Program-made: the position numbers and the translations under genes
The notes under the pieces: generated by a model
Database searches by the model: none
Seen by the model: only the letters and a program-made list of their open reading frames with translations
Told to the model about the DNA's origin: nothing
Shown: one piece after another, positions 1 to 1,244 of the stretch
Position numbering within the stretch: position 1 is the stretch's first letter
Layout of the letters: the number at the start of each line of letters is the position of its first letter
IMG/VR virus record: IMGVR_UViG_648276647_000015
Span: 1 to 13,303 of that record
From: a virus
Lineage: Duplodnaviria > Heunggongvirae > Uroviricota > Caudoviricetes
Reading direction: 5' to 3' (one strand)
DNA: 13,303 nucleotides

Positions 1-246
1 AATGTTCTTGTTTTCGTTAAACGGTAACACCTCATTCAGCCCGGCATTTCTGAAATCAATGTGCAACTGCTCCAGTGCTGCTTCTTTATCAGCACCCGTT
101 AATTCGAGATAATCCCAGAGGCTGGCGCATAAACCACAGTTTCGCGAAAATATTCCGCCTGGATTTGCTCCGTTTTTCAGCCACAAATCATAAGTAATAT
201 AAAACCCGCAAAGCTGTTGTCTGATATTTTCTTTGATTTCTTGCAT
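1..246 (-). CDS. Hypothetical phage protein, 3-prime truncated by window edge (at least 82 aa; N-term MQEIKENIRQQLCGFYITYDLW...)
   Basis: ATG at 246..244 on minus strand, open frame of 82 codons running to position 1 with no stop; same orientation as the upstream operon. Not in the ORF track because it lacks a stop in the window. Function not recognised. Confidence 0.45.
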   Translation of the reverse strand, partial: MQEIKENIRQQLCGFYITYDLWLKNGANPGGIFSRNCGLCASLWDYLELTGADKEAALEQLHIDFRNAGLNEVLPFNENKNI

Positions 247-343
247 TATTTATTACCGCCCTTTCGGGCGGCCTCCTGATTATTTGAGGGTGCAGAAATC
301 CCTCCGGTTAAGGATTAATTTTTATGTTCTGTGCCAAATTTAA

Positions 344-763
344 TTATTCAGTTCGGGCTTTTGTCGCCCTGCGTATCCGCGCTTTCACGTTGCGCTCAAT
401 CTGAATTAGCTTTTCTATATTTTTTCGCCTTTCCCGTTCCTCCTGGCGCAATTGTTTTACATCATCTGCCAGCCAGGTTTCTCTTTTCGCCACAGAGAGC
501 ATCCAGTCAAATGGTTCCACAACCGCACCGCAGATTTTACAGCGGACCTGACGCTCTTTTTCGTCAACCCGGACAGAGGCGTGATGGCAATATGGTCTTT
601 CCGATGGCTCATAAAGAAAATTAACCTGATTACGTGGGTCATCCTCTTTTACCGGAAATAAAACAATATTACTTAACTCATCTTCTGGTTTTATTTCCAC
701 ATTACCCCCCCCTTTGATGTAAATGCCAGCAACACGCAGTACCTGATAGTCAATCCCGCTCAC
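344..763 (-). CDS. Hypothetical phage protein with Cys/His zinc-ribbon-like motif (C-H-H ... CxxC), 139 aa
   Basis: ORF 344..763; GTG start at 763..761 preceded by AAGAGG Shine-Dalgarno about 7 nt upstream; overlaps the 3-prime end of the upstream methyltransferase ORF by 14 nt (coupled). Motif PYCHHASVRVDEKERQVRCKICG. Confidence 0.55.
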   Translation of the reverse strand: MSGIDYQVLRVAGIYIKGGGNVEIKPEDELSNIVLFPVKEDDPRNQVNFLYEPSERPYCHHASVRVDEKERQVRCKICGAVVEPFDWMLSVAKRETWLADDVKQLRQEERERRKNIEKLIQIERNVKARIRRATKARTE

Positions 764-1244
764 TGGTTGCCTCTTTCACAAAAATAATCCAATGTGTTTT
801 ATCGTTCTTGCCGGTACGCTGGCTGATGATTGGTTTCGCGTCGGTTAGTGCCAATATCTGGCGAACAGGTATTTGCGTTTCATTCCATTTAAAAATCAGA
901 ACGCCGTGTGGCCACAACACACGAAAGGCTTCTTTAAATCCCTGCCGCAAATCATCACGCCAGGTATCTTTATTCAGCCGTCCATATTTCTTTCCCATCC
1001 AGGCATTATCACCAATACGCTCAAGATGCGGAGGGTCGAATACAACAACCGGAAACGATGCGTCTGCAAATGGTAATGCACGAAAATCTGCTATCAGGTC
1101 AGGGCTAATAATCAGGCGTCGTCCATCACACAATGTGTGCTCTTCCTTTCTGATATCGCTAAATATCGCCCGGTCGTCATTCTTATCGAACCAGAACATG
1201 CGACTACCACAGCACATATCAAGAATGGTTGCCGGTGCACTCAC
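750..1244 (-). CDS. Small SAM-dependent methyltransferase, amino-methyltransferase type (DPPH motif), 164 aa
   Basis: Rossmann-type motifs in canonical order: motif I ILDMCCGSRMF (aa 7-17), acidic motif II AIFSDI (about aa 26-31), motif IV VVVFDPPH (aa 66-73). GTG start at 1244..1242 with AGGAGG 7 nt upstream; start overlaps upstream stop as GTGA. Confidence 0.65.
   Translation of the reverse strand: MSAPATILDMCCGSRMFWFDKNDDRAIFSDIRKEEHTLCDGRRLIISPDLIADFRALPFADASFPVVVFDPPHLERIGDNAWMGKKYGRLNKDTWRDDLRQGFKEAFRVLWPHGVLIFKWNETQIPVRQILALTDAKPIISQRTGKNDKTHWIIFVKEATSERD

Follow-up and report, generated by a model that had tools for sequence, protein, structure and literature searches.

How might a ribosome reach a start codon when the only Shine–Dalgarno (SD) sequence available to it stands 25 nt away, on the far side of a six-pair G/C hairpin? 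In the window, by which is meant the whole 13,303-nt stretch of viral DNA that was analysed, a partial gene on the minus strand is preceded by just this arrangement, and sequence comparison, folding predictions and analogy together tilt us, if only somewhat past even, towards regarding the site as a hairpin-bridged or 'split' SD of the kind found at genes 38 and 25 of phage T4, and as a recombination joint as well. What the preliminary description of this DNA did not contain is that the SD and the hairpin constitute a widespread portable cassette of 22–24 nt, located at such a joint.

The site and its start codon

Read along the minus strand, the SD, AGGAGG (277–272), directly abuts a hairpin, CCGCCC-GAAA-GGGCGG (271–256), with six G-C pairs and a GNRA tetraloop (5′ arm CCGCCC, 271–266; loop GAAA, 265–262; 3′ arm GGGCGG, 261–256). 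After it come a 9-nt A/U-rich spacer without an SD, UAAUAAAUA (255–247), and the ATG start codon of the partial gene (246–244). A seventh pair, G272-U255, is optional at the hairpin foot. It had been stated that the AGGAGG is about 25 nt upstream of the ATG at 246 with the hairpin between them, and this is confirmed, the gap being exactly 25 nt (271–247); with 25 nt between G272 and A246 the SD is thus at a linear distance of more than about 15 nt from the start. On the other side, 66 nt separate the AGGAGG from the TAA stop (346–344) of the upstream gene, and within them are an SD-like motif, CCGGAGGG (307–300), with no start codon after it, and an anti-SD-like pentamer, CCCUC (286–290), predicted to pair with GAGGG (304–300) or with the GAGG of the putatively functional SD.

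Is the ATG at 246 the true start? A start upstream of it is impossible, because there are in-frame TAAs at 255–253 and 252–250, and no internal Met occurs within the 82 visible codons of the partial ORF. Residues 7–79 of the partial protein align to positions 5–80 of phrog_2510, so its N-terminus is in the expected place, and PGAP and RefSeq put the start of relatives at the equivalent ATG. The possibility that the partial gene starts at a different codon with a conventional ribosome binding site (RBS), which the preliminary description had recognised as fatal to its proposal, therefore finds no footing in the stops of 255–250, the phrog_2510 match or the Met-free 82 codons.

The downstream gene (1..246, minus strand) is represented by those first 82 codons, MQEIKENIRQQL..., and belongs to families phrog_2510 and phrog_6418. 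Its upstream neighbour (344..700, minus strand) encodes a 118-aa Zn-ribbon protein, phrog_1621, annotated in relatives as CDSs of 357 nt. Besides its Zn-ribbon, C(x)H...CxxC, that protein ends in a basic helix, EKLIQIERNAKARIRR, about half of whose positions are fixed or almost fixed all the way from Escherichia to Yersinia and Erwinia (alignment A1), and nucleic acid may be what it binds. On the minus strand, the left part of the window carries the rightward early operon of a Rac-like lambdoid prophage, a block that close relatives have behind ydaV-like, DUF1627 and DUF977 genes and Stx phages in their ead/Ea22-like accessory region. A scan of window positions 1–1200 against Rfam, with E up to 10, gave no match at the site.

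Spread of the cassette

Of 5426 complete E. coli genomes, 1903 contain a match to the 121 nt surrounding the site, and most of those matches stop at window position 248, just before the ATG, as do the matches in phages. In 120 IMG/VR stretches retrieved with a seed upstream of the hairpin (the window's own contig is absent from the loci compared), about 94% conservation persists through GGGCGG-UA and is followed by complete divergence. When a second scan was built to exclude the common upstream sequence, the conserved core was only [A/G]GGAGG-CCGCCCGAAAGGGCGG; the cassette as a unit is [A/G]GGAGG-CCGCCCGAAAGGGCGG-UA. Homology, in short, ends at the 3′ edge of the hairpin.

The upstream side is also of more than one type. 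In a second upstream context an ORF of about 70 aa (MSNAQKVINAEKYNEW...SYHND) is present between CCGGAGG (window 307–301) and the cassette. In many relatives (L146, L014, L257 1354–1566) its ATG is 7 nt after the motif equivalent to CCGGAGGG, which is its RBS, and its TAA stop is 4 nt before the cassette SD. The window is the variant without this ORF, and the CCGGAGGG at 307–300 is therefore left there as an orphan SD.

At least five gene families are found downstream, starting 6–11 nt after the stem, with SD-to-start distances of 22–27 nt in relatives. The start is 7 nt after the stem for MRKFKI... (60 aa), 6 nt for M[VT]TLFR... (72 aa), 8–9 nt for the Ea22-like M[TA]ELTK... (135–234 aa), 9 nt for MQ[ED]IKE... 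(158–196 aa), which is the family of the window's gene, and 11 nt for MEITKE... (171–174 aa). Each of the four main downstream families is found with either upstream context. Two copies of the cassette, 1.06–1.7 kb apart and ahead of different genes, are present in 18 of 256 loci, and at the six two-copy loci that were printed the gene order is one way in five and reversed in one. As the flanks reassort and two-copy loci exist with both orders, recombination has taken place within the unit of about 24 nt or at its edge.

At a few loci what begins exactly at the 3′ end of the hairpin is unrelated DNA: in Shigella flexneri CP182556.1 (L126), just after stop_end 1857, and in L078, L155 and L199. 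The junctions there read GGGCGG followed by GGAGCAGTCAC..., by CTGTTCCGCTG... and by CAATTGTTTG..., which suggests that the edge of the hairpin may also be a hot spot for illegitimate joints or insertions.

Conservation outside Escherichia was followed with 21 loci found by a profile of the upstream protein. Among them, the homologues of Kluyvera, Erwinia, Yersinia, Photorhabdus and others are without the element, and because the more distant homologues of the upstream protein are without it, the element is specific to the Escherichia/Shigella prophage pool. Scanning about 2.5 Mb of related loci for any layout of SD, hairpin and start yielded essentially this cassette only, plus two singletons. 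One copy has quite different surroundings. At L148 11452–11476 the identical 22 nt, AGGAGGCCGCCCGAAAGGGCGG, are inside a P2-type terminase small-subunit (gpM-like) ORF, where they are read QEAARKGG; that ORF adjoins a P2-type capsid gene, and an in-frame ATG comes 10 nt beyond the stem, so that the copy may reflect common descent, a transferred unit or an internal start. Copies of the gene plus intergenic element with 94% protein identity (tblastn) also came from a MAG labelled Collinsella (L124) and from a 233-nt contig of Ursidibacter maritimus (L135). Being on short contigs of unrelated taxa, they are probably assembly or binning contamination.

The predicted fold and its variants

By itself the hairpin is predicted to fold at −12.4 kcal/mol and a 42-nt context at −15.5 kcal/mol (z = −3.3). 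In a 140-nt context the predicted pair probabilities of the stem are about 1.0, and the spacer, 255–247, is predicted to be unpaired with P about 0.99. Besides the hairpin at 256–271, the 13.3-kb window has no other stem of 6 bp, all G/C, with a loop of 4 nt, and since dinucleotide shuffles have a mean of 0.04 such hairpins per window, its presence is beyond chance.

How accessible would the SD be? In the context of the window the prediction is that the upstream CCUC masks part of it, leaving a mean probability of about 0.25 that its bases are unpaired, and in the context with the extra ORF of about 70 aa the corresponding predicted value is 0.7–0.8. No covariation was found for the pairing of CCCUC (286–290), which is a prediction only. 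Upstream of the SD on the minus strand, GAUUUCUGCA (291–300) is complementary to UGCAAGAAAUC (235–245, minus strand), which spans the UG of the start codon and codons 2–4. Their duplex has −11.0 kcal/mol, equalled by 2% of shuffles, and together with the CCUC-GAGG pairing it leads to a predicted closed three-way fold; this fold is limited to the MQEIKE gene family and therefore may be chance.

Comparison of sequences about 94% identical is a low-power test of covariation, and its outcome is not significant: 95% of cells pair and shuffles equal this. RNAalifold adds no structural support, and there is one compensatory change only, CCACCC/GGGTGG (GGGUGG in RNA). The commonest substitutions are C-to-U, with G-U pairing kept in the sense RNA (CCGCCU in 14+2 contigs, CCGUCC in 13), and pair-breaking G-to-A changes are also present among the variants. 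In about 8 of 97 distinct variants the stem is broken, with a predicted stem probability of 0.02–0.4, and these have no new proximal SD. After the cassette no long ORF was detected in about 10 of the 97, in about 5 of which unrelated DNA follows the hairpin; as some cassettes have no following gene, a role independent of the downstream gene, or mere persistence, is possible.

Does the distant SD work?

The spacer is without an SD in 51 of the 53 distinct cassette contexts, its best duplex with the anti-SD being about 0 kcal/mol. Both exceptions are MEITKE genes, whose own GGAG was brought by the junction. Is this lack of a proximal SD simply a habit of the genes concerned? When members of the M[TA]ELTK and M[VT]TLFR families occur without the cassette, a proximal SD is there in all 21 distinct contexts (GGAG, AGGA or GAGG, 6–8 nt from the start, −5.7 to −9.1 kcal/mol), from which it follows that these genes are normally SD-dependent. 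With 51 of 53 spacers devoid of an SD, the AGGAGG on the far side is then the only one available behind the cassette. Its GGAG core is invariant in 39 distinct haplotypes, fetched with a seed that did not include GGAG, and the neighbouring columns vary.

Looping out of the hairpin would leave a predicted effective spacing of 9 nt in the window and of 6–11 nt across the 97 variants. A stem of −12 kcal/mol that ends 6–11 nt before the AUG falls within the footprint of the 30S subunit and is too costly to melt there. Because melting at acceptable cost is impossible within that footprint, the hairpin must be accommodated in folded form. The earlier surmise that the distant AGGAGG can work only if the hairpin loops out accordingly appears, from sequence and modelling, to be the best-supported reading: prediction has the hairpin folded virtually all of the time, 9 nt are left after its excision, the spacer has no SD, cassette-free relatives have a proximal one, and the layout is that of T4 genes 38 and 25.

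A further candidate, a small upstream ORF read through the hairpin (...QEAARKGGNK*) and coupled translationally to the gene by TAATG or ATGA overlaps, was rejected, both because its frame is open only from 314, with no start codon in the window, and because the overlapping stop is lost in the common 'tagtgaaATG' variants.

Other ways to read the site

Might the hairpin belong chiefly to the mRNA of the upstream cistron? It would then be a barrier to 3′-to-5′ exonucleases after cleavage in the A/U spacer, or a weak, leaky terminator, and the downstream gene would be translated independently of an SD by way of an unstructured A/U-rich leader. We consider this unlikely, but not to the point of neglect. 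A stable G/C stem with a GNRA loop, followed by A/U-rich single strand, would suit it, as would the retention of the cassette at a few loci with no co-oriented gene after it and the tolerance of some stem-breaking variants. Termination is the less comfortable half of the proposal, and the preliminary description's remark that the hairpin may 'equally' be a weak terminator for the gene ending at 344 finds no support: the tail, UAAUAAAU, is without a U tract (3 U among the first 8 nt past the stem), the hairpin on the minus (sense) strand is unlisted by the terminator scan, a co-oriented gene starts 9 nt downstream in the window and 6–11 nt on in nearly all variants, and the unit is present twice within single operons. 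For an intrinsic terminator in the strict sense, which was rejected, there is the G/C-rich stem-loop but no U run, no variant with a U tract and no position at the end of a transcription unit. An element serving the upstream cistron also leaves unexplained why the AGGAGG, with its invariant GGAG core, always abuts the stem and why genes otherwise carrying an SD lack one of their own here. A 3′ barrier that acts once the A/U spacer has been cleaved could nevertheless coexist with an RBS.

A little less probable still is that there is no RNA function at all, the sequence being a conserved linker, possibly a coding relic, in which short homology or hairpin DNA acts as a recombination hot spot and the SD with its spacing is incidental. 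The exactness with which homology breaks at the 3′ end of the hairpin while the flanks reassort is just what such a linker would display, the stem is directly followed by unrelated DNA in Shigella flexneri and at other loci, the same 22 nt recur in the P2-type gpM-like ORF (QEAARKGG), and covariation is not significant. Incidental spacing is nonetheless hard to square with four families having arrived by independent junctions and all starting 6–9 nt after the stem without an SD of their own, when their relatives elsewhere always have one; the most frequent substitutions, C-to-U, preserve G-U pairing in the sense RNA, initiation cannot be indifferent to a stem of −12 kcal/mol that lies 9 nt ahead of an AUG, and a mere linker would leave the invariant GGAG unexplained. 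In having a GNRA loop on top of a GCCC/GGGC stem the hairpin is reminiscent of lambda boxB, and with the invariant basic helix EKLIQIERNAKARIRR of the upstream protein and the repetition of the cassette ahead of several genes this brings to mind an operator for an RNA-binding protein: either a site of the boxB type, recognised by an arginine-rich regulator such as, perhaps, the basic helix at the C-terminus of the upstream Zn-ribbon protein, or the target of a translational repressor of several cassette genes. We hold this to be very improbable. The cassette also occurs behind other upstream genes, Rfam has no match, and a hairpin of this kind is absent within 1.5 kb of divergent homologues that retain the basic helix, the 15 divergent loci yielding only three 5-bp GNRA-type stems, none of which resembles the cassette. 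As an antitermination (boxB/nut) site proper the hairpin was rejected, for despite its GAAA loop there is no boxA-like sequence near it, and the site is repeated and is placed behind the replication genes instead of following an early promoter.

A candidate mechanism and what it would mean

If the hairpin-bridged SD is the correct reading, initiation could proceed as follows. Within the early-operon mRNA of the prophage, the G/C stem and the GAAA loop that caps it would be folded essentially always. On binding of the 30S subunit the AGGAGG would pair with the anti-SD of 16S rRNA, and the folded hairpin would be held on the 30S platform as a looped-out side branch. The AUG would then be an effective 9 nt (6–11 nt in relatives) from the SD, within the working range. 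We infer that the hairpin forms in vivo, that ribosomes use the AGGAGG across it and that the cassette raises translation of the downstream gene. As the hairpin is self-contained, it would insulate the RBS from adjoining sequence; and since the cassette stands ahead of several unrelated accessory genes, sometimes twice per operon, it would be a patch of shared homology for the swapping of downstream genes. To go further, and to see in the cassette a portable 'standard part', i.e., a self-insulated RBS with which accessory genes need no SD of their own and whose repeats are a crossover point that leaves genes translatable, is tempting but rather doubtful. Less likely is an added layer, in which a single RNA-binding protein has the GAAA hairpin as its operator and so controls all the cassette-bearing genes together.

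What would be gained? The mechanism is already known, and the reuse of the cassette and the link to mosaicism add some value to it. Working as proposed, the site would be a second, independent lineage of the split-SD device, and one that about one complete E. coli genome in three possesses, as do Stx-converting phages, before several gene families. A translation signal would be tied to phage mosaicism, the RBS being the shared homology for the exchange of accessory genes. For gene finders and RBS predictors there is a caution, in that a start with apparently 'no SD' behind a stable hairpin may be strongly SD-driven.

Comparison with known systems

As far as we know, only a couple of T-even phage genes have a split SD site that experiment has established. 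A literature search with the hairpin sequence string returned no papers and a keyword search for prophage examples nothing relevant; as far as the searchable literature shows, a hairpin-bridged SD has not been described for lambdoid prophages. What these phages are well known for is their modular mosaicism, with conserved intergenic linker or boundary sequences at the junctions of modules. The cassette has in common with such linkers that a short sequence is shared by unrelated gene sets, homology breaking at its edge and flanks reassorting. It differs in being only about 24 nt and in coinciding with a complete SD-plus-hairpin unit, which suggests that it has been kept for translation and not only for recombination.

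That a ribosome can accommodate a folded hairpin without melting it has a precedent in the 'split ribosome binding site' of E. coli thrS (PMC3936740). The geometry there is different: the thrS hairpin is upstream of the SD, between two single-stranded binding segments (PMC3936740), whereas that of the cassette is between the SD and the start.

Much nearer are the two sites of T4. As the review PMC3014915 relates, structure cuts the SD spacing of gene 38 from 22 nt to 5 nt (experiments of Nivinskas and Malys), and that of gene 25, at the gene 26-25 junction, from 27 nt to 11 nt (Nivinskas 1999; Malys and Nivinskas 2009; PMC3014915). According to the same review, destabilising the stem at the T4 sites lowers translation initiation, and examination of 38 T4-related phages found conservation of the gene 25 site to be confined to the close T-even phages (PMC3014915). 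In NC_000866 the gene 25 site reads AAGAGG-c-CUCAAAG-AGUU-CUUUGAG-uuacuaua-AUG, that is, an SD, 1 nt, a 7-bp stem with a 4-nt loop, 8 nt and the AUG. The looped-out hairpin is of similar size, 16–18 nt there and 16 nt in the window. The gene 25 stem, though, is A/U-rich and weak (about −7 kcal/mol) in contrast to the all-G/C stem of the window (−12.4 kcal/mol), and its site overlaps the end of gene 26, where that of the window is intergenic.

The layout of the window is closest to T4 gene 38, whose site in NC_000866 is UAAGGAG-AGGGGC-UUCG-GCCCUU-CUAAAU-AUG. In both, the SD abuts a G/C stem with an extra-stable tetraloop (UUCG in gene 38, GAAA in the window), a short A/U spacer leads to the AUG, and the last SD base or bases can extend the foot of the stem. 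In both, too, a linear spacing that is too long is reduced by the fold, from 22 to 5 nt in gene 38 and from 25 to 9 nt in the window, and the predicted energies of contexts of about 41 nt are −16.7 and −15.5 kcal/mol, respectively. The gene 38 site serves one gene of a lytic phage and is experimentally proven, in contrast to the putative site of the window, which is shared by temperate lambdoid prophages and stands before several gene families.
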